Shown piece after piece: positions 1 through 16,246 of a stretch of 17,418 bases of DNA. The DNA comes from a virus (taxonomy: Duplodnaviria > Heunggongvirae > Uroviricota > Caudoviricetes), in the IMG/VR virus record IMGVR_UViG_643692022_000009; one strand, given 5' to 3'. A program made the translations under genes and the position numbers. The notes beneath the pieces were generated by a model. It was not told the DNA's origin. It searched no databases and saw only the letters and a list, made by a program, of their open reading frames with translations. The first letter of the stretch is position 1. Each line of letters starts with the position of its first letter.

Positions 1-792
1 ATGCCAATAAATGGAGTCAGTGCTGCGATGCGCGAACGGGTATCGCAGCAATTAAAAGAAATAGAACGTCGCTATGGCGTGAAAGTGCTGTACGCCTGCG
101 AATCGGGGAGTCGCGGTTGGGGATTTGCCTCTCCCGACAGCGACTACGATGTACGATTTTTGTATGTTCACCCGCTGGAATGGTATCTGCGGGTGGAGGC
201 GCCGCGCGATGTTATTGAGTTGCCTATTGACGACGAGTTAGATGTTTCAGGCTGGGAGTGGCGCAAGGCGCTGGGATTACTGAAAGGAGCGAATCCGACG
301 CTGATAGAATGGCTGGATTCTCCGGTGGTCTATCAACAAGATGAAGAAACGATAACGCCGCTTAAGGCAATGGTGCCGAAGTGGTTTTCTCCGCTGCGTG
401 CGCGTTGGCATTATTATTCGATGGCGCGGAAAAACTTTCGCGGTTATTTGCAGGGCGACGTAGTTCGGCTGAAAAAATACTTTTACGTGCTGCGACCACT
501 ACTGGCTGTGCGTTGGGTTGAAGCGGGAAAAGGCGTACCGCCAATGCGCTTTGCCGAGTTACTGGCGGGAAGCGAGCTTGATGCACCGTTACGTGCAGAA
601 ATAGACGAACTGCTGGAACGTAAACAGCGCGCGGGAGAAGCGGAATATGGTCCGCGCCGTCCTTTGTTACATGCGTTTATTCGTGTGGAACTGGCGCGTG
701 GGGAAATTCCACCAGTGTTACCGGACAGCAGGGACGGAGATGCCAGGGAACTGGATGGGTTGTTGTATCAAACAGTGATACGCCGGGCGTGA
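1..792 (+). CDS. Pol-beta superfamily nucleotidyltransferase (263 aa); N-terminal NTase fold plus C-terminal helical domain. The ORF begins exactly at the window edge, so the true start may lie upstream.
   Basis: Translation contains the hG[GS]-x(9-13)-Dh[DE]h signature of Pol-beta-type nucleotidyltransferases: 'LYACESGSRGWGFASPDSDYDVRF'. Uninterrupted 263-codon ORF with typical enterobacterial GC content. Confidence 0.6.
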   Translation: MPINGVSAAMRERVSQQLKEIERRYGVKVLYACESGSRGWGFASPDSDYDVRFLYVHPLEWYLRVEAPRDVIELPIDDELDVSGWEWRKALGLLKGANPTLIEWLDSPVVYQQDEETITPLKAMVPKWFSPLRARWHYYSMARKNFRGYLQGDVVRLKKYFYVLRPLLAVRWVEAGKGVPPMRFAELLAGSELDAPLRAEIDELLERKQRAGEAEYGPRRPLLHAFIRVELARGEIPPVLPDSRDGDARELDGLLYQTVIRRA

Positions 793-821: not shown

Positions 822-1550
822 TTACCGAAGAGAATATTTGAGCTGTTTAAATTTGCTGCAGAGTGTGTTTTTTATGCTGAAACCTGGAACCCAGTGGAGA
901 GCTGTGTTCCAGGGACGAGGTGAACCGTGAAAACATACAATTTTTGCATCCGATGGCAATTCTCCGTTTGCTTTACCATCGTGTAAGTCAGGATTAAAGC
1001 CTATCATTTTAGGCGTCGCTATATTCGCTTTGTAACTGATAATTTGTCCTGGAAAAATATCCTGCCATCTTTCAGCGTCATGACATACTCTGCCGATAAA
1101 TCCCTGATCCCCATGATATGGCGGCTTTCTGGTTGAATTTATTTCAGTTTCAGGCGATCTCATAAACTCTTCCCAGACAAGTTTTTTGGCGTCCGCAGGA
1201 ATGAACATTATTCCAGTCGCAGGAGCAGCATTGGAACCATGCTGCGAGAAGTCGTTCAGTAATGTTACTTTTTTCATTTTAGTAAACTGTGTAATATCAC
1301 CGACGATTACAGTATCAATATCAATATAAAGTATATCTTCATTCCCGATAACAGGATGTTCGGGATTAAATAGCTCTAATTTTGCCCACCATCCTGGCCA
1401 ATTATACAGTAATGGAGTGGTTTGAACCCCTTTGATTTCTGAAGCATCCGTCATGCAAATGGAATTATACCCATCCAGCTGCTGGTGAAGCCATTGTGCA
1501 TGTTTAATAGTGAAATCCTTACTTTGTCTGAGAACTGAGACAATAAACAT
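822..1550 (-). CDS. GT8-family-like (GT-A fold) glycosyltransferase, 242 aa, encoded in an AT-rich block
   Basis: Translation has a DxD motif in GT8-like context ('ILYIDIDTVIVGDI') and a C-terminal 'CFHGSPRPW' resembling the H-x-x-G-x-x-KPW motif of GT8 enzymes (LgtC, WaaJ, glycogenin type). GC content is clearly lower than in the neighbouring tail genes. The ATG is preceded by AGGGA on the minus strand. Confidence 0.5.
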   Translation of the reverse strand: MFIVSVLRQSKDFTIKHAQWLHQQLDGYNSICMTDASEIKGVQTTPLLYNWPGWWAKLELFNPEHPVIGNEDILYIDIDTVIVGDITQFTKMKKVTLLNDFSQHGSNAAPATGIMFIPADAKKLVWEEFMRSPETEINSTRKPPYHGDQGFIGRVCHDAERWQDIFPGQIISYKANIATPKMIGFNPDLHDGKANGELPSDAKIVCFHGSPRPWNTALHWVPGFSIKNTLCSKFKQLKYSLR

Positions 1551-1763: not shown

Positions 1764-2219
1764 TTATGGTTGATATTGCCAACTGTTAACTAAAGCGTAC
1801 AAGTGGTTTGGGGAATAGCGCCAACTTTCTTTTAATTGCAGAAATTCGGCACAAAATTCGCTACAAAACAGGCGATCGCGCTGTTCTTTATTGCCGGTGA
1901 TAATTCCTAAGGCTCCACGCCAGTCGTATTTTTTGCCATCATGTTTACGGAAAAAAGCTTCTACATCCTGAAGGCTGACCTGGAGCGGCAGCATATCCCA
2001 CTTGTCTGGCGGTAAAGGCATTATCTTTCCACGAACGCCGCGATCGCGCAGAGAGGCGGAGTAACAAAGGTAACTCTTTTCTCCATGTGCTACGGCTAAT
2101 TCACAGTGGGAATAACTGCCGCGAGTGATTTTGCGTGTAAGCCAGTCAGCCAGTCTCGCAATAACCCGGTGCTCTGTTCGCCCTTTATAGCAAGCGAGCC
2201 AGACTGTAGTTTTACTCAT
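1764..2219 (-). CDS. Hypothetical 151-aa protein, translationally coupled to the tail-fibre assembly gene; possible permuted papain-like (LRAT / NlpC-P60-type) fold
   Basis: Its ATG overlaps the TGA of the upstream Tfa gene (ATGA, 2216-2219). Normal GC content. Contains 'YSHCELAVAHG' and a C-terminal 'FCSEFCAEF', reminiscent of the His...NCEHF arrangement of permuted NlpC/P60 enzymes. The fold assignment is from motif recall only. Confidence 0.6.
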   Translation of the reverse strand: MSKTTVWLACYKGRTEHRVIARLADWLTRKITRGSYSHCELAVAHGEKSYLCYSASLRDRGVRGKIMPLPPDKWDMLPLQVSLQDVEAFFRKHDGKKYDWRGALGIITGNKEQRDRLFCSEFCAEFLQLKESWRYSPNHLYALVNSWQYQP

Positions 2220-2923
2220 GGTTGCCAGCCTGTTGAATAATCGTAGTCGAGTACCGACTGAATATCGTCCAGAGCTTCCACCGCCGCGATATGGCGTTGG
2301 GCGTTGGCAAACAAGCGTATATCGTGATCCATTGTGACGGATTCAAACTGGGCAGCGATTTCGTTGGTTAACTCAGTCAGACCATTATTTTTAGTTTTCC
2401 ACATTAAACCTGGCGGAATTTTTTTCTCCGCTCCCATTTTTGTGAGTGAGAGTTGTTGGATGCGGCTGCTTGTATCACTGTGGAAGTAATTGTCGTTGAT
2501 GATGATGTAGTCGGTAGTGATGGAGTCGCGCAATGTTTTGATTTCGGCACATTTCGCCTGTTTAGCATCATCAATTGATGGCTGCCATTTTTCGCCATCC
2601 CAACGCTCAAAAGTACTGGTAGGGGAAATGATGGTGACAGTTTCAGGCAATTGACCCAATTTATTAATAATAATCTGGCTGCCATCAACTTTGTTATAAA
2701 CAGTTTGGCCTCGATGATCTTCAATAAGTTCCCATTTATTAATTGACCATATAGAAGTAAAACCTGCAATTTTTTGTGGTGGTGGTGTTAATGTGCAGTA
2801 ATTCGGTAGTCCAGTGTTTGGTGCTATATATACATTGGACTCACCAATAAATTCTTGTGTGTCTGGTGAAAAATTAAAAACAGATAAAATTTGTGCGTTA
2901 TCGGAAAAAGTAAAAGTATTCAT
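2216..2923 (-). CDS. Tail-fibre assembly protein (Tfa chaperone family), 235 aa
   Basis: N-terminal region ('[33 protein letters not shown]...[12 protein letters not shown]') matches the conserved N-domain of enterobacterial Tfa proteins. Its ATG overlaps the tail-fibre stop (ATGA, 2920-2923). The C-terminal half is divergent, as expected for a fibre-specific chaperone. Confidence 0.8.
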
Positions 2924-4500
2924 GCAAGCCTCACAATATAATTGAATGCAATGTTTTTAACAGTATTTTCTGTATTGCCAGTGTTATTGATGATAATTGA
3001 GTGATTATGTGTACCTAACACAATATTATGTGTATGACTTCCCAGTGCGATTGTATGTGCATGGGCGCCAATCGTAATACTATGATAATGACTACCAGCA
3101 GACTCAGTAGGTTCTCTGTAGTTCTCATCTGAATTGGGGCTGTTCCATAAAGACGGTCCATCTTTACCTTCTGCACCATCAGTTGGTATTCGGTGTGTAT
3201 GTTCTCCAGATGTGCTTGTATTTCTACTTCCATGATTAAATGAAGCTGTAGTTTTTGTTCCTAAGTCCGTAGAGGTAGATGTTATTGTCCCTAAATTGGT
3301 ACTAGAAATACTGCCCGTATGGTTATGTGATTTAACTCCATCCAGTTCAGTAGATAATATAGCGCGCCCACTGGATGGTTTTCCTTTAATTATCCATCCG
3401 CGCATATCAGGAATAACGCCAGATGGATATGCAATTGCCAGTTTGGGATAGGAGGTTTTATTAAATGTCTGACCAGTCATCAGAGCGTAGCCTGAAGGTA
3501 CAGAATCAGATGGCCAGGGTATAGGCATCCCTACAGGACAGCTTTCCGCAGCAATAGCCTTATCCATCGCTGCCTTAACCGCGTTCGGCGTTGCAGCTTC
3601 CGTCGTACTGGTGCTGTTGGTCGCATTATTAAGTTTCACGACCCCTTTTTGTGTCAGCGTACCGTCGGGGATACCTGTTATTTGCCCCCAGGCATGGGTA
3701 TGGCTGGACGGTGCCGCAGCAATAGCCTTGTCCATCGCTGCTTTAACAGCACTTGGCGTTGCAGCTTCCGTTGTACTGGTGCTATTTGTTGTGTTGTTAA
3801 GTTTAACGACTCCTTTCTGCGTCAGTGTACCATCAGGGATACCAGTAATCTGACTCCAGGCATGATTATGACTGGTGGCAGCTTTGCTATTTGCCAGGTC
3901 ATATGCCGTTTTTACCGCTTTTGGCGTGGCCGCTTTGGTTTCATCATCGCTATTAGTCGCATTACTCAGCTGCGTAAAACCTTTTTGTGTCAGCGTCGCA
4001 TCAGGATGATTTCGTGATTGCTGATGTGTTTTCAACGCGTCATCGACATATTCCCTGGTTGCCACAACGACTGAAGGGTCGATCAAAAGCGTCACCGCAT
4101 CTGCATTGGTGACTTCCATGACCGCGCGTATAACGATTTGCTTACTGGCCCCCGCAGGTAATCGTGGCTTATAGGTTTCAGGGATTTTTCCGATAGCGAC
4201 CAGCGTGCCGTCGGTATCCAGTAACCCAACTTCGCGTACATACCAGCCTCCGACTTGTTCGGGAATAATCGCTTCCGCGATAACCCAGGCCGGATTATCT
4301 GGCGCAATTTTTAACGTATTGAGCTGACCACGCCAGACCTCATGGACTACTTTAGTCTGACTTTCTGTCGGTTCGATATATTTACCATTACCGTCGCCAA
4401 CTACCATAGTTTGCAGACGGATCTGTTTTTGCTCCGTCAATGCAGAGGCAATTTTGGCTTTGCCTGCAGTAGTTAATATTGTAAAAAATTCACTTGCCAT
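2920..4500 (-). CDS. Tail fibre protein (P2 gpH / Mu S-like N-terminal anchor, central collar repeats, His-x-His C-terminal tip), 526 aa from the ATG at 4500
   Basis: From '[22 protein letters not shown]...VGDGNGK...HEVWRGQLN...[33 protein letters not shown]' the N-terminus closely parallels P2 gpH. GGAGGAATA lies just upstream of the ATG at 4498-4500, which overlaps the gpI stop (TAATG). The ORF track extends 42 codons further upstream to 4623, but that ATG lies inside gpI. The C-terminus carries HxH repeats. Confidence 0.85.
3548..4010. repeat. In-frame tandem coding repeats inside the tail-fibre gene: two near-identical 168-nt (56-aa) units plus a diverged third copy
   Basis: Units beginning 'gcagcaatagcct' at 3548 and 3716 (period 168 nt) encode 'HAW[S/G][44 protein letters not shown]'. 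A degenerate copy ('[37 protein letters not shown]') lies at about 3884-4010. These are the phage tail-fibre collar repeats. Confidence 0.85.
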
Positions 4501-5234
4501 TATTCCTCCGGATATACAGACATAATTTCGGTGCTCCAGTATCCTGTGCCGACCTTCATCGGTTGGGATTGTGTAAGGCGATCGGGTTGATAAGGTAGTA
4601 GTTGGATATATTCCTCCACACAATAACCCGTCGCTAAAAATATTCCTGATGACTGGCTGAGGCTTTCTGCAACAGGAGGCAATACTGTAATGACTTCCCC
4701 TCCTTGCATGGCGCTGCCAATAACTGGTATTGGGCTTCGATTAATAAGCCAAATAACAATGCTTTCCAGCTTTGAACGAACATTTTTATATTCATGAATT
4801 AATGTGATAAGTGCATTGAATTCATCTTCATTTAATCCTTTTTCCTCTAGTGTAATATTTACCTTAAAAAAATAAGCCCTTCCCCCATATTCAAACCATT
4901 CTGAAATAGTTCCGGGTAAGGAAAGTATTTCCAGCACCCGCCGTACCGCCCAAATTGTTCCTTTATATTTATGCAGTTCAATGGCTTGTTTAATTAACTC
5001 GCGCTTCTCCCGCTCATCGGTGGTAAATAACCAACCTTCCAGCCCCTGAACGTGAAATTGTTCTGCAAGGGCTGGTAATGCCGAAGCATCAACCAGGTCG
5101 ACCAGATAAACCATCAACGCCGTCAGATCGAGTTGGGCAAAACGCTCGGCGGCGATGTTTGCCAGAATCGAAAAACGCTCATCGCTGGCAAGCGGCGGCG
5201 GTGGCAGCAATTTATCCATCGCTGACTCCGGCAA
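4500..5234 (-). CDS. Baseplate / tail protein I (P2 gpI family)
   Basis: N-terminal '[13 protein letters not shown]' and overall pattern match gpI-family proteins; it sits between gpJ and the tail fibre as in P2 and R-pyocin clusters. The true start may be the internal Met (MDKLLPPP, 5219); both candidate starts overlap the gpJ 3' end. Confidence 0.8.
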
Positions 5235-6327
5235 TCGTGACGTCTATTGCAGTGCATTCCGCCCATTCATGCGCCTGCAAAATACGTTTTGTAGGCATAT
5301 TCAGCGCAACGTCATAGACGCCATCGACCTGTAACACTTTGATTATCTGGTTTGGCACAATGTCCTGCCCCAGATGTTTCTGCCGCTGTTGCGTCCAGAG
5401 GCTAATCGCTTTACGCGCCGCAGCCAGCGTTGTCTCCTGATCGGCGGTGGTAAACAGCGTTAGCTGAGCACGGATCTCATACGGCACTCGAAGAGCGCAT
5501 TTCGCACTCACTTTGTCGGTCAGCGGACGTTTTTTCTCCTTGCTAACCTCCTGTTCGATTTGCGCGAGCAGTTCTGTTCCCGGCAGTCCGTTCAGGGTTA
5601 GCGGGTAGATCTCCACGCAGCCTTCTGGCAATCCCTCGTCCGGCCCCAGTACTGCAACGTCAATAATCGACTGGCTAACAGAAAGCGTATGAAAGCGGTA
5701 TGCGCCATAGCTGCCCGCATTACTAAAGCTTTCTGGTGCCAGTTGGATACGCTGGCGCAATGCGTCATCGCTCTCCTCACCGCAGCCGCCCGTTGACGCA
5801 GTCAGGTTAGTTACGTTGATGTCATAATGACCCATCCTGTCGACCAGTGCGCTAATTTGTGCAGGCTGCCAGCCGTTGCCCTGTTCACCTGCTGCGAGGC
5901 TGGTGGCAGGAACGGCGATATGCAAACTCCTGGCCGGAAGCAGAACATCTTCATCGGTGGCGAACATCACGCTATCAGAGGCACTGGCCCGCGTCCCCTG
6001 GGGAATCAGGATATTGCTGGTATACGCACTGACGACCGAAAACTGCAACGTCGTTTTTGCAGGCTGCGCAGGCAAACGGTGAACGCCCACCAACTCCCCT
6101 AAATAATCCAGCATTGGCGCGCGGGAATACGCGACCAGGTTTTGTTTCGCCGCTTCCTGAATGGCGATGCGTACAAGGTTTTCACGATAGGCAAACAGGT
6201 CGATGAGCAACCGCTCAGCCTGTGCCGGATAGAGTTTTTTACCACTGGCATCTTCGTATTGCGCAATCATCTCACTGGTAATTTGCGCAGGATCGCGGTC
6301 AATAAAATTGGGTTCGGCTATCGCCAT
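5212..6327 (-). CDS. Baseplate assembly protein J (P2 gpJ / T4 gp6-like wedge), 371 aa
   Basis: Size and position (W-J-I order) with gpJ-like composition; start overlaps the gpW 3' end by 10 nt. Confidence 0.8.
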   Translation of the reverse strand: MAIAEPNFIDRDPAQITSEMIAQYEDASGKKLYPAQAERLLIDLFAYRENLVRIAIQEAAKQNLVAYSRAPMLDYLGELVGVHRLPAQPAKTTLQFSVVSAYTSNILIPQGTRASASDSVMFATDEDVLLPARSLHIAVPATSLAAGEQGNGWQPAQISALVDRMGHYDINVTNLTASTGGCGEESDDALRQRIQLAPESFSNAGSYGAYRFHTLSVSQSIIDVAVLGPDEGLPEGCVEIYPLTLNGLPGTELLAQIEQEVSKEKKRPLTDKVSAKCALRVPYEIRAQLTLFTTADQETTLAAARKAISLWTQQRQKHLGQDIVPNQIIKVLQVDGVYDVALNMPTKRILQAHEWAECTAIDVTIAGVSDG

Positions 6328-6677
6328 AACACCTCCGTTGAGTTGATAACGCCGTCAGCGGCGCGCCATTGCACACGTAACGTCAGATGTTCGCCGTCGA
6401 TTACTGGTGTCAGCTTCAGCAACCGACAGCGCGGTTCCCACTGGCGGATGGCTTCCACCGACTCCCGTACCACATGCGGGATTGCCCGCTCGATGGGGTA
6501 ATCGATGTAGTGCCACAAGTTGCTGCCAAACAGCGGTCTGTGGGGATCACTGCCGCGCGGTGTACGCAGAATGATGTGTATTGCCTGGTGAATATCATCC
6601 AGCCCGCAGACGTATTCTTCAGGCCGCTGCAAGGCCGGTTGCCAGTGCAGCGTTGAGGGTCGTGTTTTTGTGTTCAT
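6318..6677 (-). CDS. Baseplate wedge protein W (GPW / gp25 lysozyme-like family), 119 aa
   Basis: Size of about 120 aa immediately upstream of gpJ; sequence consistent with the GPW/gp25 family. Confidence 0.75.
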   Translation of the reverse strand: MNTKTRPSTLHWQPALQRPEEYVCGLDDIHQAIHIILRTPRGSDPHRPLFGSNLWHYIDYPIERAIPHVVRESVEAIRQWEPRCRLLKLTPVIDGEHLTLRVQWRAADGVINSTEVLWR

Positions 6678-6737
6678 GAGGGTATTTTCGCCCTGAACGG
6701 GCTGTGGCGATATTAAAGCGATTTAGAAAACTGATTG

Positions 6738-6770
6738 ATTAAAAAGAGAAAACCCGCCATCAGGCGGGTT
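6738..6770 (-). terminator. Strong intrinsic terminator between spike gene V and wedge gene W
   Basis: Minus-strand transcript reads AACCCGCC-UGAU-GGCGGGUU (perfect 8-bp GC-rich stem at plus 6751-6758 and 6763-6770) followed directly by UUCUCUUUUUAAUC. The hairpin starts 5 nt after the gpV stop (6776). Confidence 0.6.
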
Positions 6771-6775
6771 AAACG

Positions 6776-7477
6776 TCAGTGTGTATGGTGGTTGGAGTTG
6801 CCACCGCTGTCCTGCAATGCGCCGCTGGCCTGAACGTTGCCGATCACGTTGACATTGCCAGTTATCGTGGCGGCGTTACCGATGCCTCCACTTCCTGCCA
6901 TCCCGCCAAGCCAGGTGAGTTTTTTCATTACCGTGACGTTGCCAGTAAAGGTGCTCATGGGCGCATCTACCGTCACTGCTGCCGCTTTAACATCGACCTT
7001 AGTGGCGTCGATGCTGACATCGGTCGCTTTAACATCGACAGTATCGGAAGTCACGATGACCTGTTGGGCTTTAATCTCAACGTTGGGTGATGTCAGGCGG
7101 GTACTGTCGATAACCTCAATCACGATTTTCTCGATACCGCCGTTAATCGTCAGCTGGTGCGTGCTGCGGTCATATTCAAACGCTGCGCCATCAGAAAACT
7201 GGACGTAACGTTTATCGCGCGAGGCCACAGGCGCGGTGTCAACCGTAGAATAAACTGCGCCCAGCACCACGCCATCTTCACCGTTATTGTCCAGCAGAAC
7301 TTCCACTTGCTCGCCCATATCCGGTAGCCAGTAGTCTTTATTGTCCTGGGAATTGCGTTGAAGTACCGCAAGCCAGTTGCTCTTCAGATTGTCACACTCC
7401 GGGAGCGTGACCCGCACCCGAACGCTGGTTTCGTCAATATCGATGATAATCCCCGTTTGCCGGGTTACTCCTTTCAT
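6776..7477 (-). CDS. Baseplate spike / assembly protein V (P2 gpV family), 233 aa, with Gly-rich His-terminated C-terminus
   Basis: Position directly downstream of gpD and sequence character of gpV-family spikes; C-terminus '...GGMAGSGGIGNAATITGN...NSNHHTH' fits a metal-binding apex. AGGAGGAAATATG-type RBS upstream. Confidence 0.75.
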   Translation of the reverse strand: MKGVTRQTGIIIDIDETSVRVRVTLPECDNLKSNWLAVLQRNSQDNKDYWLPDMGEQVEVLLDNNGEDGVVLGAVYSTVDTAPVASRDKRYVQFSDGAAFEYDRSTHQLTINGGIEKIVIEVIDSTRLTSPNVEIKAQQVIVTSDTVDVKATDVSIDATKVDVKAAAVTVDAPMSTFTGNVTVMKKLTWLGGMAGSGGIGNAATITGNVNVIGNVQASGALQDSGGNSNHHTH

Positions 7478-7486
7478 ATTTCCTCC

Positions 7487-8527
7487 TTACTGGCTGGTCG
7501 CTGGCCCGCGCGACACGTCGATTTCAGTGGTATAGCCGCTGCGCACAAAACTGTGAGTAGATTTATCAATTAGCCATTGACCGGAAAGCACGCCAAAATC
7601 GGTTAGCTCGATTTTATTGCCCGCCGTCAGTTCCGGGCAGCCCATCATTGTGAGCGTTCCGGTTTGCTGATATTCGTTGTGGCTGTCGAGTGCAGCGTTG
7701 GCTTTTGCCTGTGCTGCGCCAACGTCCGTCGCCCGACTGTTCAGTTTTAGCGTGTCGGCACTGGTGCCGACTCCACGGGCAGACGGTTTTTGCTGGCTGT
7801 CGTGGGTGTAGATAACCAGTTCTTTTTTCTTACTATTTTGATGCTGTACGGTGGCGTTTTTGTAGATACGGTTAATGGTATCTTTGAAGGTGAAATGCGA
7901 AACGTCTTTGCGGTCGATCGTTTTTACCGGTGCCAGGCAGCGCAGCGTGGGTAAATGTGAAAAAATCAGCTCTTTTGTCGTCACTTTTACGGCATAACCA
8001 TATTCACTGGCCAGACGTTTGAGAAATCCGACATCGGTTTCACCATACTGCGTTACCCGGTCGATGGTGAGCGGCTCGATTTTGCCCACCAGTTTCAGAC
8101 CGTGCGTTTGGGCGATACGGCTGGCGATAGCCGAAAGCGTCGTTTCTTCAAAGCCCTGGCTGTTACGGGTGCGCAGCGCCTGATTGACGGAAGTGGCGAT
8201 GCCATCAATATTTACCGTGGAAGGTGGCGCTGAAATATCAATTTTATCAATAATATATTGACCACAATCGAGCAGTTTTTCCCCCTGATAACCCATATGC
8301 AGCGCCAGCGTATCGCCTTTGCCGGGATACCACTCTTTTATCCAGCGTCCATCGGTGTCATCCAGTGTAATCGCGATGGTATCCGACTCGTTTTTAATAC
8401 TGTCCTGGTAACTGATGCTGGTGACATAAGGCGTGATGTCATAAGTGATATCTTTATGCCCATACCAGAGGGTAAAAATGGGCGCGAGCGTGGCAAAGAC
8501 GCCGCCAGTTACGCTTATCTCAGCCAT
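7487..8527 (-). CDS. Tail protein D (P2 gpD late-control-D family baseplate hub), 346 aa
   Basis: Size and position (U-X-D order as in R-type pyocin and P2-like tails); gpD-like N-terminus. Confidence 0.8.
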   Translation of the reverse strand: MAEISVTGGVFATLAPIFTLWYGHKDITYDITPYVTSISYQDSIKNESDTIAITLDDTDGRWIKEWYPGKGDTLALHMGYQGEKLLDCGQYIIDKIDISAPPSTVNIDGIATSVNQALRTRNSQGFEETTLSAIASRIAQTHGLKLVGKIEPLTIDRVTQYGETDVGFLKRLASEYGYAVKVTTKELIFSHLPTLRCLAPVKTIDRKDVSHFTFKDTINRIYKNATVQHQNSKKKELVIYTHDSQQKPSARGVGTSADTLKLNSRATDVGAAQAKANAALDSHNEYQQTGTLTMMGCPELTAGNKIELTDFGVLSGQWLIDKSTHSFVRSGYTTEIDVSRGPATSQ

Positions 8528-8727
8528 GGTGGGAGCTCCGATACGGTTTTGTTGACGGAAATGACCGGAATGATGAGCTGAATACCGGAAGGTAGTACCG
8601 GGTAAATGGCGACATGTGGATTGGCGGCGATAATGCGTTCATAAGCCAGCGCATCGCCATAGTAATGCCATGCCAGATTATCCCAGCGTTCGCCGTCGGT
8701 GGTGATATGTTCAAGGTATCGCATCAC
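8515..8727 (-). CDS. Tail protein X (P2 gpX family, LysM-like), 70 aa
   Basis: A 70-aa protein with 'DGERWDNLAWHYYGD...IIAANPHVAIYPVLPSGIQLIIPVI' parallels gpX ('GDTLD...RYYG...AANP...LP.G..L.IP'). Start overlaps the gpU-like stop (ATGA). Confidence 0.75.
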   Translation of the reverse strand: MMRYLEHITTDGERWDNLAWHYYGDALAYERIIAANPHVAIYPVLPSGIQLIIPVISVNKTVSELPPWLR

Positions 8728-9677
8728 CAGCTCCTCGTAATGGTTGCGGCAGCAAACTGACTCACTGCTGGAGTGGTTCGTTGTACCGTTGTTCGTGCCT
8801 GATCAACCAACGTTGCTGCTTTATCAAACGTCGTTTCGGCGATGTCGCTGGTAATGTCATCGAAAAGCGCCTGAGCATGGTCAACCAGCGTACTGGCGTC
8901 ATTGGCGCAGTCCCGGATACCTGGCATGTTACCCAGTAAAGCTTTAATCTGCGCCGACAACGCTTTTGGGAGTCCTGCCAGCGTTTGCAGATCCATCGGC
9001 TGTATAAACAGGGTTTCGATGGCGTCGATTGTCTTTTTCAACGACGTAATTATCTTTTCACACTTTTCTTTTAACGCTTTGGCCTCTTTAATCAGTGCTT
9101 TCACTTTTGCCACTGTTTTTTTAATATCTTCAATGGATTGCGCCAGTTCATCGAGCATCTCTTTGGCTTTGCGCATACCTTCTTCAATGGCGTTCAATAT
9201 CTGATCTAACCAGGACTCCTCCTTATTCGGAAAATCGCTCGCCTTTTCCTCGATATTAGGCTCCTGGGTGGTAATTGCCGGGGGCAGCAGTGGGTTTTTC
9301 GGATCGCCGGTATACTCCTGGAGCGACATTGTTCCACTTTGGGCAATCACATTGCCCCAGGGATCGGTGTGCTGGTGAGTGGCGGTTAACTCTGTAATTA
9401 CAAACCAGCCGCGATAATCTCCGTTGCCAAACACCAGCGCCATTGCTTTGTGGGCGAGCATGGCTTCACGCAGTCGATTCAGCTCTGTTGTGGGTTGGCA
9501 AAACTGGCTGTGCAGGGAAAATTCCAGCGCCAGCATATCCAGCTTATCGCCAATAAACTGTACGCCAGGTTTGCCTTCAATACGGGCATGTGTGGCGTAA
9601 TCCACGCCCATTGTGCTCTTAAAGCCATCCCAGAACGTGACAACTTTAAATTCAATCTCTCCTAAAACGGCATACAT
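8724..9677 (-). CDS. gpU-like tail terminator domain fused to a roughly 190-aa C-terminal coiled-coil-rich extension (317 aa total)
   Basis: N-terminal 'MYAVLGEIEF...RIEGKPGVQFIGDKLDMLALEFSL' parallels P2 gpU ('MMLALG...F...RIGKRDAFQFLGVGEENITLAGVL'). The C-terminal half is K/E/A-rich with heptad-like periodicity. Start overlaps the tape-measure stop. Confidence 0.7.
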   Translation of the reverse strand: MYAVLGEIEFKVVTFWDGFKSTMGVDYATHARIEGKPGVQFIGDKLDMLALEFSLHSQFCQPTTELNRLREAMLAHKAMALVFGNGDYRGWFVITELTATHQHTDPWGNVIAQSGTMSLQEYTGDPKNPLLPPAITTQEPNIEEKASDFPNKEESWLDQILNAIEEGMRKAKEMLDELAQSIEDIKKTVAKVKALIKEAKALKEKCEKIITSLKKTIDAIETLFIQPMDLQTLAGLPKALSAQIKALLGNMPGIRDCANDASTLVDHAQALFDDITSDIAETTFDKAATLVDQARTTVQRTTPAVSQFAAATITRSW

Positions 9678-12052
9678 CAGGCATACCCCCGGCGCTGCTG
9701 CTGCGCCATTACATCGTTAATCATTCTTTCCAGTTCGCGTTTACTCATCGTCAACACGTTCTGAATCTCTTTAGTGGTGTTTTGTCCGTTACCCTGCACG
9801 GTAATTTGTGGCGAAAAATTCACCTGAACTTTTCCTGAGGAACGGGAAGGTAGCGTCGCCGCTTTGGTTACGGATTTACCAGGTAAAGAGGCCGATGCTT
9901 GTTTGGCGGCTGTATTTTTTGCCGCTGATGCCGATGGTAGCGTTGTCGTTTTACTGGATGGCGCGAGTTGTTTCCCCACTGGAGGCGTTAAAATCGCACC
10001 GGCAACGCCTGGAACAACGGTCGTGGAGGAGACGGATGCGGTATTACTCGTGCTTGTAACAGCCGTAGCCGATCCTTCTGTACTAATACCCATCGTGGTT
10101 TTTAGCCAGTCCGGTAAGGCGTTTTTGATCTGGTCAATAATGCCTTTCAGAGCGGGGAAGGCATTTATTATGCCGTCAACCAGACTGCCCAGAAGATTGC
10201 TGCCGAACTCGCTAAAACTTGCAGGCATCTCGACACCAAACCAATTCATCACACTGGAAAAGGCGCTATAGAACAAAGCCAGCGGCGACCAGTCGAGAAT
10301 CAACCGGCAAATCCCTGCAATACCGCCGTCAAAGGCCGTGGTGATACGTTGCCAGATGGTCGAAAAGAACCTGGAGATAGGCTCCCAGTTGCGATAAATC
10401 AGATAAGCAGCACCCGCAATTGCGGTGATGACCAGGCCAATGGGATTCATCAATAAAACCCTACCCAACCAGAAGACGGTCTGACCTACCTGTTTCAGTG
10501 CGCCAATCAGGCCACGACCAAGCAGTTGCATTAGCCATTTTGCGCCGCCACCCAATGACTTAACCGCTGATAGCATCTTACTTGCCCCGCCTGTGAGCGC
10601 CAGACTTGCCTTGACTTTCAGGAAGATATCGACCAGACGAATAAACGGCGAGGTGATGAGGTTCGCGCCCAGCTTTAAAACATTCAGCGCACCGTTAAAC
10701 AGCCAAATCGCCCCGACGATTTTCGCGATGTTTTGCACCAGTGTCGGGTGCTCACGTAGCCAGGTGCTGAACTGACGAATAACCGGCGTAAGGCTTTGTG
10801 CCAGCTCGCCAATCAGCGGCATTAATTGCAAGCCAATGCTGAGCCATAAATCATTTAACGCCAGCTGTAACGCTTTAGTCTGTTCAATGGGCGAGGCCAT
10901 TTGCGCAGAAAAGTCGGCATCAATCAGATTCTTGCTGGTGGCTTGCATGGCAGAGGTTTTTAACTGGCGATATTCCTCCATATTCGCCAGCATAGGTGCC
11001 AGGAATTCCACCGTTTGCGCATCGCCGAACATTTCGCCCAGATTAAATTGCGTCACCATCGATTGCAGCGCATTGCTGCGAGCAGATAAATCTTCAATCT
11101 GCATAGTTCGTTTGAAGGTGTCGAGGATCGCCGGATTCATCTTCTCAAGCTGCATTTGTACGATATGAGTCATGGCTTCGCTAACACCCATACCGTTTTG
11201 CTGATGTTCAAGCAGAGAGCCTTGCAGATCGACGCCCTGGCTGGCGAACCAGTTATCGGTCTTTTTCGAAAAGGTGGTTTGCAGAAAGTGGTCGAAATTC
11301 TCCGCCGCCGCACTGGCGCTGGCTCCGTTTTTCATGGCGATCTGCATGGCGGCAGTCAGTTCAGCCATACCTTCCAGACCCTGAGCGCCGGTTTTACCTG
11401 CAAATTTGTCTATCCACAGCGTTTGCTCGGCAACGGCAGGCCCACCGCTTTTGCTAATGCCGTACATCATGTTTTGCGCGACGTGGAAATTTTCTGGCGC
11501 AATATTCAGTCGATCATGGGTTGCGAGCGCGGCATTCGCCCATGTTTCAGCACTTTCGCGCGTGGCGGTGGCAGCTTTGGCGATCTCCGGCATATAACGG
11601 TTGAGATCCTGTATCGACGACAAATTGCCTTCGATCAGCGTTTGGGCTGCGTTCTGTAAGGTGGTCTGATGCTGGTTAAAATCCATGCTCCAGTCGCGCA
11701 GATTAAGGCTGAGCGTCTCGCGAGTTGTATCATTCATCCCACCTTTGGTCGCCATATTGACCATGTTGTCCTGGAACTCATACGGCAACTTCCAGTCGGG
11801 GGCTTCAACATTGAATACTTTGCTAAATTGCCCGGCAAATGTGTGGGTTTTCTCCATCAGATTAGCGCGGCTGCGGCTATTTTCCTCCAGGCGGAGAGCG
11901 GAATCGGCAAGCCGCTGCGTTAGTTTGATAACTGTCGCTTGCTGAGTAGAGAGAGCTAACAATGTTCTGGCGTTGAGTGAGCCGTAACGGGCTATTGCCT
12001 GCGTCAACGTCTCATTACGCGCCTGAAGCTGGGTAATAATATCGTTGGCCAA
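9677..12052 (-). CDS. Tail tape measure protein, 791 aa
   Basis: Long alpha-helical protein with central hydrophobic segments and an S/T/A-rich low-complexity C-terminal region, located between the chaperone gene and gpU as in all P2/Mu-type tails. Confidence 0.85.
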   Translation of the reverse strand: MANDIITQLQARNETLTQAIARYGSLNARTLLALSTQQATVIKLTQRLADSALRLEENSRSRANLMEKTHTFAGQFSKVFNVEAPDWKLPYEFQDNMVNMATKGGMNDTTRETLSLNLRDWSMDFNQHQTTLQNAAQTLIEGNLSSIQDLNRYMPEIAKAATATRESAETWANAALATHDRLNIAPENFHVAQNMMYGISKSGGPAVAEQTLWIDKFAGKTGAQGLEGMAELTAAMQIAMKNGASASAAAENFDHFLQTTFSKKTDNWFASQGVDLQGSLLEHQQNGMGVSEAMTHIVQMQLEKMNPAILDTFKRTMQIEDLSARSNALQSMVTQFNLGEMFGDAQTVEFLAPMLANMEEYRQLKTSAMQATSKNLIDADFSAQMASPIEQTKALQLALNDLWLSIGLQLMPLIGELAQSLTPVIRQFSTWLREHPTLVQNIAKIVGAIWLFNGALNVLKLGANLITSPFIRLVDIFLKVKASLALTGGASKMLSAVKSLGGGAKWLMQLLGRGLIGALKQVGQTVFWLGRVLLMNPIGLVITAIAGAAYLIYRNWEPISRFFSTIWQRITTAFDGGIAGICRLILDWSPLALFYSAFSSVMNWFGVEMPASFSEFGSNLLGSLVDGIINAFPALKGIIDQIKNALPDWLKTTMGISTEGSATAVTSTSNTASVSSTTVVPGVAGAILTPPVGKQLAPSSKTTTLPSASAAKNTAAKQASASLPGKSVTKAATLPSRSSGKVQVNFSPQITVQGNGQNTTKEIQNVLTMSKRELERMINDVMAQQQRRGYA

Positions 12053-12141
12053 AATTGTTTCTCTTATAGATTGGTGATGGCCCGCTGGTTAGTTTTCTGA
12101 AAAATGGGCTGGGAAGAAATAAACCTGGCGGGCTTTGAAGA

Positions 12142-12166
12142 ACTCGCAGACATCAGGTCTGCGAGT
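12142..12166. other. Perfect 10-bp inverted repeat (ACTCGCAGAC / GTCTGCGAGT, 5-nt loop) in the chaperone to tape-measure gap
   Basis: Read directly from sequence. On the minus strand the hairpin spans the stop codon of an open +1-frame extension of the chaperone gene and is followed by UUCUUCAAAG (a poor U-tract). Possible attenuator or frameshift-associated structure. Confidence 0.4.
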
Positions 12167-12240
12167 CATATTCGATCTTTATTTGAGCGCTGGCTTCATC
12201 CAGCCAGTTGCTAAAGTCATCTATGGTGAGCGCGTCTATC

Positions 12241-12558
12241 TCACTGGGCGGAAAGCGAAACCATCTCGCCAGTAACGCCATCGCTTGCCATAACAGTGGC
12301 GGATTCTGTAGCCACGCTAAGCATGGATTGAAATCGTTTCTGCAATGCCTGGTAATCCAGCAAATCCATTTCAGCTAAATCTTCTGGCACCAGTCCGGTC
12401 ATTGCCGCCATTAGCGGTTCATCCCATTCTTCTGGTTTTTCGCTGATCCGGCGCGCGTTGCGCATATCTTTTACTTTCAGGCGACGTAATTGCAGCGTGT
12501 CGATATTATTTCCTGCTGCCGACGTAAATGGAAACTGCAAGATATAATGTTCTTTCAT
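12241..12558 (-). CDS. Tail assembly chaperone (P2 gpE-like), 105 aa
   Basis: Small acidic protein in the conserved slot between the tube and tape-measure genes; sequence pattern parallels gpE. A 189-nt gap follows before the tape-measure ATG, where an E-prime-type extension would be expected. Confidence 0.65.
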   Translation of the reverse strand: MKEHYILQFPFTSAAGNNIDTLQLRRLKVKDMRNARRISEKPEEWDEPLMAAMTGLVPEDLAEMDLLDYQALQKRFQSMLSVATESATVMASDGVTGEMVSLSAQ

Positions 12559-12608
12559 TTTGTGTCCTTATTTATTTTGCAAAGTTCGGGGCCGTAGCCC
12601 CGAATAAC

Positions 12609-13133
12609 TTAGCCACCGATGTTATTGCGATAGGTACTTAATTGATCCACACCATTAACCCGGAAAATATTGGCCATATAATCAAGTTCAAGCAGCGTTT
12701 CACCATCAACTACTTGTTTAATATAAGTGCAACCAAAGGCGCTGCTGAATTCCGGGTTTTCATTCTGTTTAAATGTGCCCAGTGGATTCTTTTTAAACAT
12801 CACGGTTAAATGTGTCACTAACGCTAATTGATTCGCTTTCCCCTGGGAGTTATAGCAATCAATACTGGAGCGGCACTGTAATGCCACCGCCTGCCACGGG
12901 TTTGCCGTTTTACGCATGACGTCCTGATAAAAGGAGTTCCATTTAATTTCGCCCTCCAGTTTATCGAAACCTGCCGGGAGTTCGATTTTGCCGACCATAC
13001 CCAGTGCCTTATGCTCTTGCATAATTAAACTGACATCCGGCAATTTAATTTCGGTTGCACGACCTAAAAGGTTATTACCATCGAGATAAATATTGGCGTT
13101 GGTAATACGGTTAATTTGAATTTTTCCAGCCAT
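12609..13133 (-). CDS. Major tail tube protein (P2 gpFII family), 174 aa
   Basis: Size and position immediately downstream of the sheath gene (start overlaps the sheath stop by 1 nt); tube-family sequence character. Confidence 0.85.
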   Translation of the reverse strand: MAGKIQINRITNANIYLDGNNLLGRATEIKLPDVSLIMQEHKALGMVGKIELPAGFDKLEGEIKWNSFYQDVMRKTANPWQAVALQCRSSIDCYNSQGKANQLALVTHLTVMFKKNPLGTFKQNENPEFSSAFGCTYIKQVVDGETLLELDYMANIFRVNGVDQLSTYRNNIGG

Positions 13134-14563
13134 TAGCTATTGCTCTCCAGAGAGACTAAATATTCAGAAGTAATTTCAGTTTCAAACGTCAGACGTTCCA
13201 GCGGCGGTGGCGGGGTGAATTTATAGCTCAGCAATAAATGCCCGGCGCTGAGTTCGGTCGGTGAATTTCGCGCCGGATCGTACCAGCACTCAAAGCCAAG
13301 CAGTGCGCCGTCGGCAATCAGCTTACGGCCCCAGGTATTTACCGATTCGGTCAGGGCATCAATCAGCGCCTGATTAATCGGCATATCAATATACTGCTGA
13401 CTGAAATAACGGATTGACTCATTAATTACATCGCCTGTCCGGCGGGCGTTTTCAAAGTTACGCATATGGGTCACGGTAGGCCATGCCGCTGTGCGGTTGC
13501 CCCACAAGCGCAGACCAGAGCCGTAACTATTGAAAATAGTGGTAATGCCGTTTTCGTTGAGCTGATTCACTTCGCTTTGAGGATCATCAATCATTGCGGA
13601 AAGCGAACGTTCAATACCGGTAATACCCTGAATTTCCTGGTTTGAGTTGCTCCACCAGAAACCTTTTTCGAGGTCTACTTTGGCACGTAGCCCGGCAGCG
13701 CGCGAAGAGAGCGGTTCGAGAACTTCCTGGTTAGTGATGCCATCGTAAACTTTGACGTGTGGGTAACATAAACGCGCACGATCAGAGCTGGTGTTGAAGT
13801 TGATAGCCCCTTGCGAACCGCGTCCTGCCAATACCTGCTGGAATGTCGTCCCAATCGGGGCATCAATGTAGGTAATCGCACCAAGTTTTTCCGCTTGTGC
13901 AATCAGCTCGGTAGTTACTGATTTTTGCGTACAGAACACGGGAGCAAGCAGGATTTTGGCGTAGAAACCATACAGGTTATAGGTGTCCTGTAGCAGTTTC
14001 ATCCCCGTGCGATCGCCTGCGGTATTAACGGCACCGATAATATCGGCTGCGGTGACCTTTGTAGGGTCGCACCAGGAATAATAGGCGCAAACTTTCGCAC
14101 CAGGAGGAATGTCGGCTCCTGTACGGGTAATTATGCCTGTTTGTTCATCTACGCTAAATGCTGCGGTGTTATAGGTTGATGAATTTGATGAAGAGGGCTT
14201 TAGAACCACGTTACGCACATTGCGGTGAGCGAGTTTCGCCTGGTTGTTAGCGTCAAAAGTGATACTCTCATTGCTGATGTTGGAGCCATGTTTTGCCGGA
14301 TCCAGCACGTTAATCACCACCACCGTACCGGCACCGTGGTCATAAATCGCCTTCAGTGCCTGCGGGATCGTAAAGTTAGCCTGAGTCGAACCAAACTGCG
14401 CAGCATCGCTTTCAGAAAGGCATAATGTTGGTTTATTTACCGGACCACAGGGGGCCGTACCGATTAAAGCGATGACGGCGGATTTTACCGCTTTAACCGG
14501 ACGCGGGCCGGTTTCAATTTCAATGGTTTCTACACCGTGCAGATAATTAGCTGCCATGTACAA
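13133..14563 (-). CDS. Contractile tail sheath protein (P2 gpFI / Mu L family), 476 aa
   Basis: N-terminus 'YLHGVETIEIETGPRPVKAVKSAVIALIGTAP' is the conserved sheath start (compare P2 FI 'YHHGVQVLEINEGTR...'). Size is typical of sheath proteins. Confidence 0.9.
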   Translation of the reverse strand: MYMAANYLHGVETIEIETGPRPVKAVKSAVIALIGTAPCGPVNKPTLCLSESDAAQFGSTQANFTIPQALKAIYDHGAGTVVVINVLDPAKHGSNISNESITFDANNQAKLAHRNVRNVVLKPSSSNSSTYNTAAFSVDEQTGIITRTGADIPPGAKVCAYYSWCDPTKVTAADIIGAVNTAGDRTGMKLLQDTYNLYGFYAKILLAPVFCTQKSVTTELIAQAEKLGAITYIDAPIGTTFQQVLAGRGSQGAINFNTSSDRARLCYPHVKVYDGITNQEVLEPLSSRAAGLRAKVDLEKGFWWSNSNQEIQGITGIERSLSAMIDDPQSEVNQLNENGITTIFNSYGSGLRLWGNRTAAWPTVTHMRNFENARRTGDVINESIRYFSQQYIDMPINQALIDALTESVNTWGRKLIADGALLGFECWYDPARNSPTELSAGHLLLSYKFTPPPPLERLTFETEITSEYLVSLESNS

Positions 14564-14744
14564 TTTCCTCTCCGTTATTTTGTTCTTCCTGAGTGATGAC
14601 AGGTGTCAGATGATTGCGGGCAATCATGGTCATGACCCACTCGTTGTCTTCTGGCAGATCAATTTCACTGTTCGGCCACAATAAGATTTCTTGTCCGTCG
14701 GCAAGGGTGACGCCGCTTGCCGGGCCGTTGTAGATGTATTTCAT
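14547..14744 (-). CDS. Small conserved phage protein (65 aa), possibly Mu gp38-like (DUF2635-type)
   Basis: Tightly packed between the upstream ORF (ATGA overlap at 14741-14744) and the sheath gene (17-nt overlap), matching the small ORF that precedes the sheath gene in Mu-like tail modules. The family assignment is from memory and not verified. Confidence 0.35.
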   Translation of the reverse strand: MKYIYNGPASGVTLADGQEILLWPNSEIDLPEDNEWVMTMIARNHLTPVITQEEQNNGEEIVHGS

Positions 14745-15196
14745 TCAGTTTCCTCGTAATTAACTTCAGTAAGCAGGGTAAGGTCCGTGCTTTCCCGTTT
14801 CGCGATAAACAGCGAGCTGGTCGCCATTTCCAGGATGTAGCGGCAGAAACCACCGCTCTCGCCTGCATTGATTTCTTTTTCAAGCCAAAGAAGACGCTCG
14901 CAATCAGGAAGCTGGATCCCCCCCAGTGCGCTGCGTATGCGGTCCAGTGCGTTTAACGCGTCACAATTTTTGCCAACAATAACGGTGGCAGTTAAACGGA
15001 GCGTTTGCTGTTGCACGAGAGCATCACTGCTTTCAGACATGGCAAATAGAGAACCGCTATAATTAATAATCACTGTAACTTGCTGCGTCTGCGGAATATA
15101 TTTATGGGCATCAACCGATGAAATAGATACATCCATTTCGGGATTCTGTTCACATAATCTGGTCACAACAGAATTCATTACTGATAAAATTTCCAT
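14741..15196 (-). CDS. Hypothetical tail-module protein, 151 aa; candidate tail completion / terminator-type protein (Mu gp37-like by position)
   Basis: Uninterrupted ORF with AAGGGA 8 nt upstream of the ATG, co-oriented with and immediately upstream of the sheath operon. No diagnostic motif recognised. Confidence 0.35.
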   Translation of the reverse strand: MEILSVMNSVVTRLCEQNPEMDVSISSVDAHKYIPQTQQVTVIINYSGSLFAMSESSDALVQQQTLRLTATVIVGKNCDALNALDRIRSALGGIQLPDCERLLWLEKEINAGESGGFCRYILEMATSSLFIAKRESTDLTLLTEVNYEETE

Positions 15197-15313
15197 ATAG
15201 GGTATCCCTTAATTATCGCTGATTCGTTAACGCTCACTTCGTTATCGTTGAAATGTATTCTGACGTAGTGAAGGTGAAGGATCTTTTAATCTGCTTTAGA
15301 GAAAAAATTGAAT

Positions 15314-15628
15314 TTAATAGCTACCGCGTTGTAATAGCTCTATTTTGCTATATAAGGCATCCAGCTTTGCTTCTAATACTGCCTGGCCACGAAGATAATC
15401 TTCTCTGCGGACATAATGCAGCGGAAGCTCGGCACGAAATTCGAGAAATTCTCTTTCCAGTTTCGACCAGTTTGTTTCTGATTCCCGGCGCGCGTTTTCC
15501 AGAGATTCAAAACGCTCATTAAGTCTTTTTTCAATTTGCGCTAACAGCAATTTTCCGGCAGCAAACATTAATCCAACGAAGGAAAGCATAAGGGAGATCA
15601 CTTCCCAAAAATCGATACTGAGTTTCAT
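15314..15628 (-). CDS. Membrane-anchored coiled-coil protein, 104 aa; candidate i-spanin or other lysis accessory protein
   Basis: N-terminal hydrophobic segment ('VISLMLSFVGLMFAAGKLLL') followed by a charged helical region with heptad character; located 12 nt downstream of the lytic transglycosylase gene. No o-spanin lipoprotein partner was identified. Confidence 0.45.
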   Translation of the reverse strand: MKLSIDFWEVISLMLSFVGLMFAAGKLLLAQIEKRLNERFESLENARRESETNWSKLEREFLEFRAELPLHYVRREDYLRGQAVLEAKLDALYSKIELLQRGSY

Positions 15629-15640
15629 CGGCCCCTCTGA

Positions 15641-16246
15641 TTAGTGAAGACAGCTTGCCTGTCCCCAGAGTAAATAGCGGGCGGCGTGTTGATAGAGAAT
15701 CATCTTTGGATAGCGACGATTTTCTCGCCAGTTCGTGGCGCTGCGCCCGGCGTTGACTTGCTCAACATGACCAAACCAGAGAGTGGCATCTAGCCCTTTG
15801 GATACAGCCAGTTTTTTATCCCGATTAACCCATCCCTGACCGCCGTTATAGGCGCTTAGGGTAAACGCCATACGCTGACAATCATTTTTCGCAGAGATGT
15901 TTTTCCACAAATACTGGTCATATTGCACCAGCGCGCGAATCGCCCAGGTTGGGTTATACGGTTTGTTTTCACGCAACTGCGGATACAACTGGCTTACCCA
16001 TGTCGCTGTAGCAGGCATGAATTGCGCCATACCTTGTGCGCCAACGGGGGAACGTACCATTGGCTGCCAGGCGGACTCCTGGTGTAATTGCCCGGCAAAG
16101 TCGGCCACTGGGGCATTCAGTCCCCAGACTTCTCGAGCGGTACGAATTAGTTCGTTTCGCCATGCCAGAGAGGCTCTCGGCGGTTCAGAGGCGTTGAGTG
16201 GGAAAAGAACGAAAATAATCATAGACGCGATATATTTCAGCCACAT
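15641..16246 (-). CDS. SLT-domain lytic transglycosylase (endolysin) with N-terminal signal or SAR-like hydrophobic segment, 201 aa from the ATG at 16246
   Basis: Contains the family-1 lytic transglycosylase motif with catalytic Glu: 'HQESAWQPMVRSPVGAQGMAQFMPATA'. N-terminus 'MWLKYIASMIIFVLFPLNASEPP'. The ORF track extends to 16345, but the ATG at 16244-16246 lies 2 nt after the upstream gene stop and begins the hydrophobic segment. Confidence 0.8.
   Translation of the reverse strand: MWLKYIASMIIFVLFPLNASEPPRASLAWRNELIRTAREVWGLNAPVADFAGQLHQESAWQPMVRSPVGAQGMAQFMPATATWVSQLYPQLRENKPYNPTWAIRALVQYDQYLWKNISAKNDCQRMAFTLSAYNGGQGWVNRDKKLAVSKGLDATLWFGHVEQVNAGRSATNWRENRRYPKMILYQHAARYLLWGQASCLH

Follow-up and report, generated by a model that had tools for sequence, protein, structure and literature searches.

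A RlaP-family nucleotidyltransferase at the border of an Escherichia tail cluster as the second gene of a probable Band-7 RNA-repair operon

Background

Why should a nucleotidyltransferase (NTase) gene of the DNA polymerase beta (Pol-beta) type lie at the very border of a phage tail cluster? The question is raised by the first 792 bases of the viral record IMGVR_UViG_643692022_000009, a Caudoviricetes stretch of 17,418 nucleotides that is called the window below. Records list the exact protein encoded there under Escherichia fergusonii. An earlier note on this DNA took the gene for a stand-alone nucleotidyltransferase, comparable to several toxin and defence enzymes and situated beside a tailocin or prophage end. 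We propose another answer. In our opinion the gene, which encodes a protein of the RlaP family (RNA ligase-associated Pol-beta), is quite probably the second gene of a sigma-54-dependent Band-7 RNA-repair operon, reduced from a type in which Band-7, RtcB and RlaP are encoded together under control of RtcR.

Results

The gene and its family

The open reading frame (ORF) opens with ATG at base 1 of the window, which is the start codon annotated in E. coli orthologues of the RlaP gene, and closes with TGA at 790-792 after 263 uninterrupted codons. When the protein is compared with Pfam, RlaP (PF10127, "RNA repair pathway DNA polymerase beta family") is the sole family above threshold. It scores 320.9 bits (E 8.6e-96; gathering score 23), and residues 10-256 cover positions 1-248 of the 249 of the profile; the generic Polbeta model stays far under its cut-off. 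Relatives of RlaP fall into 5232 representative clusters (E <= 1e-3). The nucleotidyltransferase motif GS-x10-DxD, which had already been read from the letters, is present with exactly these residues. G36, S37, D48, D50 and, in addition, D81 are invariant across the 41 sequences of an alignment with relatives of 37-57% identity. D81 would supply the third catalytic carboxylate of the Pol-beta fold; three strictly conserved aspartates are described in PfRlaP, a Pseudomonas homologue (PMC12776372). Judged by its sequence, the protein is an ordinary member of the RlaP family.

The AlphaFold2 (AF2) model built from a diverse alignment has a mean predicted local distance difference test (pLDDT) score of 96.4 and a predicted template modelling score (pTM) of 0.91. 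It was used instead of a model from 27 close orthologues, in which residues 26-113 have pLDDT below 50. It predicts an alpha/beta NTase core at about residues 8-113; what comes after it, 115-262, is helical almost throughout (helices 115-128, 131-149, 159-174, 184-189, 195-210, 221-234 and 248-262), in agreement with the helical C-terminal domain suspected earlier. The predicted order of NTase domain, helical domain and terminal helix 248-262 is the same as described for the crystal structure of PfRlaP, where the C-terminal helix packs back on the NTase domain (PMC12776372). Sequence comparison with the Protein Data Bank (PDB) gave no match to RlaP at E <= 0.01. The fold search in PDB returned kanamycin NTase/ANT(4'), Hailong HalB and GlnE, with template modelling (TM) scores of 0.3-0.5 and 9-15% identity. 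ANT(4') and HalB share with the model an N-terminal Pol-beta NTase followed by a helical domain. They differ in the lack of a sequence-family match, in their substrates (aminoglycosides and, for HalB, synthesis of dATP oligomers) and in their gene contexts. These matches are of superfamily level only, and we did not use them to assign function.

Does the enzyme nevertheless belong among toxin or anti-phage NTases of the AbiEii, MNT, CD-NTase or Hailong HalB kind, in a defence island by a prophage end? Its generic architecture of a Pol-beta NTase with a helical domain would fit, and HalB is a weak structural neighbour (TM 0.41-0.52, 9-12% identity), yet the structural matches do not go below the superfamily and the MntA model reaches 12.3 bits against a cut-off of 60. 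The PADLOC v2 library, which is without systems described after 2023 such as Hailong, gave no match to RlaP at E <= 1 or to the Band-7 partner at E <= 0.1. In the loci examined, the gene is not accompanied by a HEPN, AbiEi, effector or HalA-like partner. In favour of a defence enzyme, the site in E. coli is variable: it is empty, or it holds a zeta-like kinase or a tail cluster; the operon itself, however, has as its orthologues the RtcR/RtcB operons for RNA repair that occupy this chromosomal site elsewhere. With RlaP as the only family above threshold, the comparison with AbiEii-, MNT- and CD-NTase-like enzymes had to be given up, and we regard a defence NTase as very improbable.

The Band-7 partner, its promoter and its leader

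The gene is not a stand-alone one. In all six genomic places with the identical protein, a Band_7/SPFH ("slipin") gene of 375 codons precedes it on the same strand, ends 5 bp before the ATG of RlaP and has ahead of it a sigma-54 promoter and a conserved, probably tRNA-like leader (Table 1). Partner genes had been expected upstream of position 1, and this is where the Band-7 gene was found. Its product matches PF01145 (E 2.6e-26) and stomatins in PDB (E 1e-19 to 1e-22) and has, by inspection, no obvious hydrophobic N-terminal segment. Among E. coli genomes, 1629 contain the slipin gene with its leader and 1630 contain RlaP.

The spacer between yjbD and the Band-7 gene measures 528 bp and carries the sigma-54 type promoter TGGCACGCTTCTCGCA. 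About 130 nt beyond the promoter, ahead of Band-7, there is a tRNA T-arm, CGGGTTCGATTCCCG. Both TGGCACGCTTCTCGCA and the T-arm GGTTCGATTCC are kept in Escherichia, Klebsiella, Kosakonia, Mangrovibacter, Morganella, Lonsdalea and Franconibacter. The leader element was recovered through comparative alignment alone. An alignment of eight enterobacterial sequences gives three helices, with compensatory changes in 16 of the 26 pairs. When enterobacterial and distant leaders are aligned together (11 sequences), they are out of register, and no more than the T-arm and one hairpin is supported. In more distant loci, ARAGORN reports one or two tRNA-like genes between promoter and Band-7. A tRNA associated with band 7 (the "b7a-tRNA") was predicted by Burroughs and Aravind (2016) and, according to a summary in bioRxiv 10.1101/312249, has never been validated experimentally. 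Judged by its sequence and position, the Escherichia leader is probably such a b7a-tRNA.

Within Enterobacterales the tRNA-like leader accompanies Band-7 always, with L021 as one exception (loci L018-L022 and L033 compared with L014-L016, L040 and L047). RtcR/RtcB-RlaP operons without Band-7 lack the T-loop leader; if a sigma-54 promoter was found in them, its place is 50-140 nt ahead of rtcB. Because the leader tracks the presence of Band-7, RNA and scaffold seem to have been gained and lost together. One E. fergusonii genome (L006) is peculiar in this region: it has a partial rluF-yjbD duplication (4601-8338), and a gene for a GT4 glycosyltransferase is inserted just upstream of its Band-7 promoter region.

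One chromosomal site and a series of operons

RlaP occupies a fixed site between yjbD and lysC, and synteny at this site extends over Escherichia, Klebsiella, Leclercia and Franconibacter. Gene sets of the individual genera are listed in Table 1; Mangrovibacter and Lonsdalea have RtcR and Band7-RlaP, as in Klebsiella. We surveyed the neighbourhood of 80 RlaP loci from different species. In the roughly 45 closest ones (at least about 50% identity), RtcB and/or RtcR stands beside RlaP in all but seven, and the operons of Pseudomonas and betaproteobacteria run on into RtcA. A few of the distant RlaP genes are found next to Hen1/Pnkp or Ro (TROVE) genes; the others have unrelated contexts.

In E. 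coli the gene is accessory. It is present in about 30% of strains (1630/5426 genomes) and absent from K-12. According to the earlier note, its reading would be refuted by a conserved housekeeping gene of the core genome with syntenic chromosomal neighbours in related species. The synteny is largely there, whereas the gene does not belong to the core. The rtcB-rtcR region, on the other hand, finds matches in 5425 of the 5426 complete E. coli genomes, elsewhere than the RlaP locus. The K-12 rtcBA promoter and the Band-7 promoter have in common the element CTGGCACG-N4-TnGCAAT (-24/-12) and, further upstream, a GATAAnnGnnGATAnnT-like element. From the near universality of rtcR-rtcB in E. coli and from these shared promoter elements we infer that resident RtcR and RtcB would serve the module. 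A sequence of the RtcR binding site was looked for in the iScience 2022 paper and not found there.

Could the Escherichia pair be what is left of an RNA-repair operon, without function and in decay? This would explain why rtcR and rtcB have been lost from the locus and why 70% of E. coli, including K-12, do without the gene. The ORF, however, is intact and of full length, with all invariant residues of the family, and RlaP is intact throughout the E. coli genomes that carry it; the sigma-54 promoter and the structured leader are intact as well. The ratio of nonsynonymous to synonymous substitution rates (dN/dS) of RlaP against its E. coli, Klebsiella and Franconibacter orthologues is 0.06-0.08, a range reached within Escherichia at dS 0.29-0.44. 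For Band-7, dN/dS is 0.05-0.10; dS of the pair within Escherichia is 0.2-0.44. Judging from these rates, the Band-7-RlaP pair is under strong purifying selection and is not decaying, and the idea of a remnant seems to us scarcely credible.

The border with the tail cluster

The next gene (822..1550) lies on the minus strand, so that it converges with RlaP, as had been described. At the end of RlaP there is a GC-rich hairpin (Table 1). Fold of positions 765-830 has -23.2 kcal/mol (z -3.6); no canonical intrinsic terminator was called at the hairpin, and there is no canonical T-run. The hairpin is possibly a terminator common to the two convergent genes. When the window is aligned with IAI39 and with an E. 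fergusonii locus of the zeta context, the sequences are identical through the hairpin and diverge from base 802; the megablast match ends at 801, and GC content changes from about 0.54 to 0.35-0.42 past the hairpin. Because sequence is shared through the hairpin and GC drops after it, RlaP is to be assigned to the chromosomal flank and not to cargo. The hairpin is the last conserved part of the RlaP module, and the tail cluster is a separate inserted cassette of low GC, starting after base 801.

Three states of the site are seen in E. coli (Table 1), and the 1630 genomes with RlaP are made up of the two occupied ones. Either cassette can stand beside the identical RlaP protein in E. fergusonii (L007 and L008 versus L004-L006 and L009). 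This bears on the proposal that the P2/Mu-like tail cluster next to it, or a prophage, carries RlaP as cargo. Physical adjacency and a match to phrog_14344 (E 5e-120) would speak for it, but the protein is the same with and without the tail cluster, homology and GC content break at the position given above, and orthologues occupy the same site in genera without the tail cluster. The nearest true phage homologues are those of Pseudomonas jumbo phages, at 48% identity or less. Comparison of genomic contexts thus refutes the cargo proposal, to which we attach practically no probability. Of the supposed tailocin or prophage end, the neighbourhood stands, since the gene does adjoin a tailocin-like tail cluster; the gene itself belongs to a fixed chromosomal site. 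A plasmid origin was rejected too: the "plasmid" matches are megabase-size replicons or mislabelled chromosomes.

Table 1. Positions of the features discussed, states of the E. coli site and gene sets of related loci (locus handles L003-L009 denote genomic loci; other positions are those of the window)
Feature	Location	Strand	Basis or content
RlaP coding sequence, complete, 263 aa	1..792	+	ORF; PF10127 match, full length
Pol-beta catalytic motif G36-S37-x10-D48-Y-D50 with two metal-binding Asp	106..150	+	Translation and alignment
D81 codon, putative third catalytic carboxylate	241..243	+	41-sequence alignment; AF2 strand 80-86
Predicted C-terminal helical domain, about residues 115-263	343..789	+	AF2 model
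GC-rich hairpin GCCGGGC-GUGAU-GCCCGGC, stop codon in loop	782..800		Fold
Band_7 gene	L004-L009, 8868-9995	Same as RlaP	Gene context
RlaP gene	L004-L009, 10001-10792	Same as Band_7	Gene context
Sigma-54 promoter TGGCACGCTTCTCGCA and leader with T-loop GGTTCGATTCC	L004, 8553-8710 (L003: +2000); upstream of window		Comparative alignment
E. coli site, state 1: empty	yjbD-lysC spacer, 252 bp		K-12 MG1655
E. coli site, state 2: Band-7-RlaP and convergent zeta-toxin-like kinase			1434 genomes
E. coli site, state 3: Band-7-RlaP and P2/Mu-like tail cluster of about 17 kb			186 genomes
Franconibacter locus	yjbD-lysC		Divergent rtcR, sigma-54 promoter, tRNA-like RNA, Band-7, RtcB, RlaP
Kosakonia locus	lysC-pgi downstream; yjbD not seen within flank		Gene set as in Franconibacter
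Klebsiella locus	yjbD-lysC		As Franconibacter, without RtcB
Leclercia locus	yjbD-lysC		rtcR, RtcB, RlaP; no Band-7, no T-loop motif
Escherichia locus	yjbD-lysC		Band-7 and RlaP only

The two cassettes next to RlaP

The first cassette consists of a zeta/PezT-like P-loop kinase of 309 amino acids (PezT E 3.7e-31), encoded on the minus strand at 10825-11754 of L007 and at 8828-9754 of L001. The latter locus (NZ_CP026085.1, 4.83 Mb) is labelled E. coli DH5alpha and carries the Band-7-RlaP-zeta island; its strain label looks doubtful. The kinase has an N-terminal extension of about 100 amino acids, is always single-copy and has no antitoxin gene annotated. Wherever its locus was examined, its place is between RlaP and lysC, and it is mutually exclusive with the tail cluster. 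We considered it as a conserved partner of RlaP and rejected it: no homologue was found in the 80 RlaP loci of other species, and we therefore take it for a neighbour particular to Escherichia. According to the RlaP preprint, the RNA 3'-kinase that compatibility with RtcB calls for is undiscovered (PMC12776372); to link it with the zeta-like kinase would be pure speculation.

The second cassette begins with the convergent gene facing RlaP. It encodes a phage "moron" glycosyltransferase of 242 amino acids (phrog_1962, E 9e-99, no Pfam match), is of low GC and is missing in E. coli IAI39, whose cluster is otherwise 95% identical. Another low-GC gene on the minus strand (1764-2219; 151 amino acids, phrog_1128) comes before a tail-fibre assembly gene. 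Positions 2216-17418 (L003 12807-30386) hold a P2/Mu-like contractile-tail module with fibre, baseplate J/W/V, gpD, gpU, tape measure, tube, sheath, holin, lytic transglycosylase and Mor activator. In IAI39 the interval from RlaP to lysC is free of genes for head, replication or integrase, and we therefore call the module tailocin-like. Some of the 186 E. coli tail clusters carry an ISEc53 or ISKox3 insertion.

Discussion

The sole experimental work on RlaP that we found is a bioRxiv preprint by Carruthers, Fatma and Huang of December 2025 (PMC12776372). PfRlaP and PaRlaP, from P. fluorescens and P. aeruginosa, add one to two nucleoside monophosphates onto the 3'-OH of RNA and are inactive on DNA or protein; they favour mimics of cleaved tRNA and Mn2+. 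RlaP can also give back aminoacylation to a tRNA that lost a nucleotide before ligation (PMC12776372). The window protein resembles both enzymes in belonging to the same Pfam family over its full length, in the GS...DxD motif with a third Asp, and in the predicted plan of an NTase domain with a helical one. A P. fluorescens homologue (L032), which lies in an RtcR/RtcB-RlaP-RtcA operon, is 60% identical to it. The contexts differ: the Pseudomonas genes lie between rtcB and rtcA with rtcR divergent, whereas the window gene follows Band-7, without ligase, cyclase or RtcR in cis. For homologues in phages (T4 NrdC.11 and RlaP of jumbo phages), restoration of nucleotides ahead of RNA ligation has been predicted (Iyer et al. 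2021, PMC7824862). They are members of the same family; the window gene differs in being chromosomal and syntenic across genera, and no phage copy in GenBank exceeds 48% identity to it.

We suggest the following course of events for the Escherichia module. The operon would be arranged as promoter, tRNA-like leader RNA, soluble Band-7/SPFH scaffold and RlaP. By analogy with the orthologous operons, RtcR would induce it once damaged tRNA ends accumulate. RlaP, if it behaves as the Pseudomonas members of its family do, would then extend the 3'-OH of RNA by one or two nucleotides in a Mn2+-dependent and template-independent reaction. The added nucleotides may replace those trimmed by ribotoxins such as RloC, before the ends are rejoined. 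Subsequently the RNA would be handed over to RtcB, with Band-7 and the tRNA-like RNA serving as scaffold or cofactor. As the Escherichia locus contains Band-7 and RlaP only, the module would probably rely in trans on the RtcR activator and the RtcB ligase encoded at rtcBA, a locus that is nearly universal. Repair of toxin-damaged RNA is the likely role of RlaP, and in a broad sense this still belongs to biological conflict.

Several observations weigh against this proposal. Firstly, in genomes with the exact protein, no RNA ligase, end-healing enzyme or RtcR was found within 10 kb; with no ligase in cis, the "ligase-associated" context that defines the family is missing at the Escherichia locus. 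Presence of rtcR and rtcB in trans was surveyed in E. coli, and the species of the window is E. fergusonii. The upstream GATAAnnGnnGATAnnT-like element shared by the two promoters could be a site for integration host factor (IHF) and not for RtcR. Secondly, the chemistry does not fit easily: the product of RlaP has a 3'-OH and is not directly ligatable by RtcB, as the authors of the preprint concede (PMC12776372). The activity is known from Pseudomonas enzymes and from none of the enterobacterial ones. Thirdly, neither ARAGORN nor Rfam reports a tRNA-like gene ahead of Band-7 in the Escherichia, Klebsiella and Franconibacter loci, and the single-sequence fold of the Escherichia leader is no better than that of shuffled sequences (z -0.57).

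That several lineages have lost RtcB from the operon would allow for a role independent of a ligase. One can imagine that tRNA-like RNA, Band-7 and RlaP form a self-sufficient unit without a ligase. For example, tRNAs, or the tRNA-like RNA itself, might have their 3' ends restored or extended by RlaP, or damaged RNA might be tagged for decay, with Band-7 as a platform. RtcB is absent from the operon in at least four lineages (Escherichia, Klebsiella, Mangrovibacter and Lonsdalea) that keep leader, Band-7 and RlaP, and both genes are under strong purifying selection in this ligase-less form. The incompatibility of the 3'-OH product with RtcB points the same way, as do the many distant RlaP genes without a ligase within 6 kb. 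Yet where the closest relatives have fuller operons, RlaP stands together with RtcB in every case; among more distant ones its companions are the repair genes Hen1/Pnkp or Ro/TROVE. In E. coli, RtcB is available in trans in essentially all strains, and there is no direct evidence of ligase-independent activity. We consider such a self-sufficient unit distinctly unlikely. A somewhat broader formulation is that the retained trio is a functional unit of either of two kinds, an accessory module of the RtcR regulon connected through the sigma-54 promoter, or a device for ligase-independent healing or tagging of RNA ends. We put it forward tentatively and hold it to be doubtful.

The RNA-repair operon that we favour is not of an unfamiliar type. 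It was described computationally in 2016, and the enzyme family was first characterised in 2025. With the Band-7/b7a-tRNA/RtcB operons predicted by Burroughs and Aravind (2016; cited through bioRxiv 10.1101/312249), the Escherichia locus would share the tRNA-like RNA, Band-7, RlaP and an RtcR-type sigma-54 promoter. In the orthologous loci of Franconibacter and Kosakonia the set is complete, from RtcR through b7a-tRNA, Band-7 and RtcB to RlaP. Measured against that description, Escherichia lacks RtcB and RtcR, and its tRNA-like RNA appears degenerate, with the T-arm and two helices kept. The E. coli rtcR-rtcBA operon (Genschik 1998) has nearly the same -24/-12 sigma-54 element and a similar upstream element. 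The rsr-yrlBA-rtcBA operon of Salmonella (Hughes et al. 2020, PMC7790460) follows a like logic of scaffold protein and tRNA-like RNA together, with Ro and YrlA in place of Band-7 and b7a-tRNA. Both these operons encode ligase and cyclase and no RlaP. RtcR and RtcB of the yjbD-lysC type are paralogues of the K-12 proteins, 62% and 73% identical to them, respectively. Slightly new are two things: the series of reductions at one syntenic site, and the finding that in Escherichia the promoter, the tRNA-like RNA, the scaffold and RlaP are retained with neither ligase nor activator in cis.

What seemed to be an orphan defence NTase at a prophage border is, in our interpretation, the end of a chromosomal operon that is probably devoted to RNA repair. 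Escherichia thereby offers a natural and genetically tractable module of Band-7, tRNA-like RNA and RlaP that has neither ligase nor regulator of its own. It may be used to test whether RlaP and Band-7 act with RtcB in trans and whether the b7a-tRNA is expressed. If the retained trio should prove to be a functional unit, the physiological role of RlaP would not be simply to fill in nucleotides before RtcB ligates.

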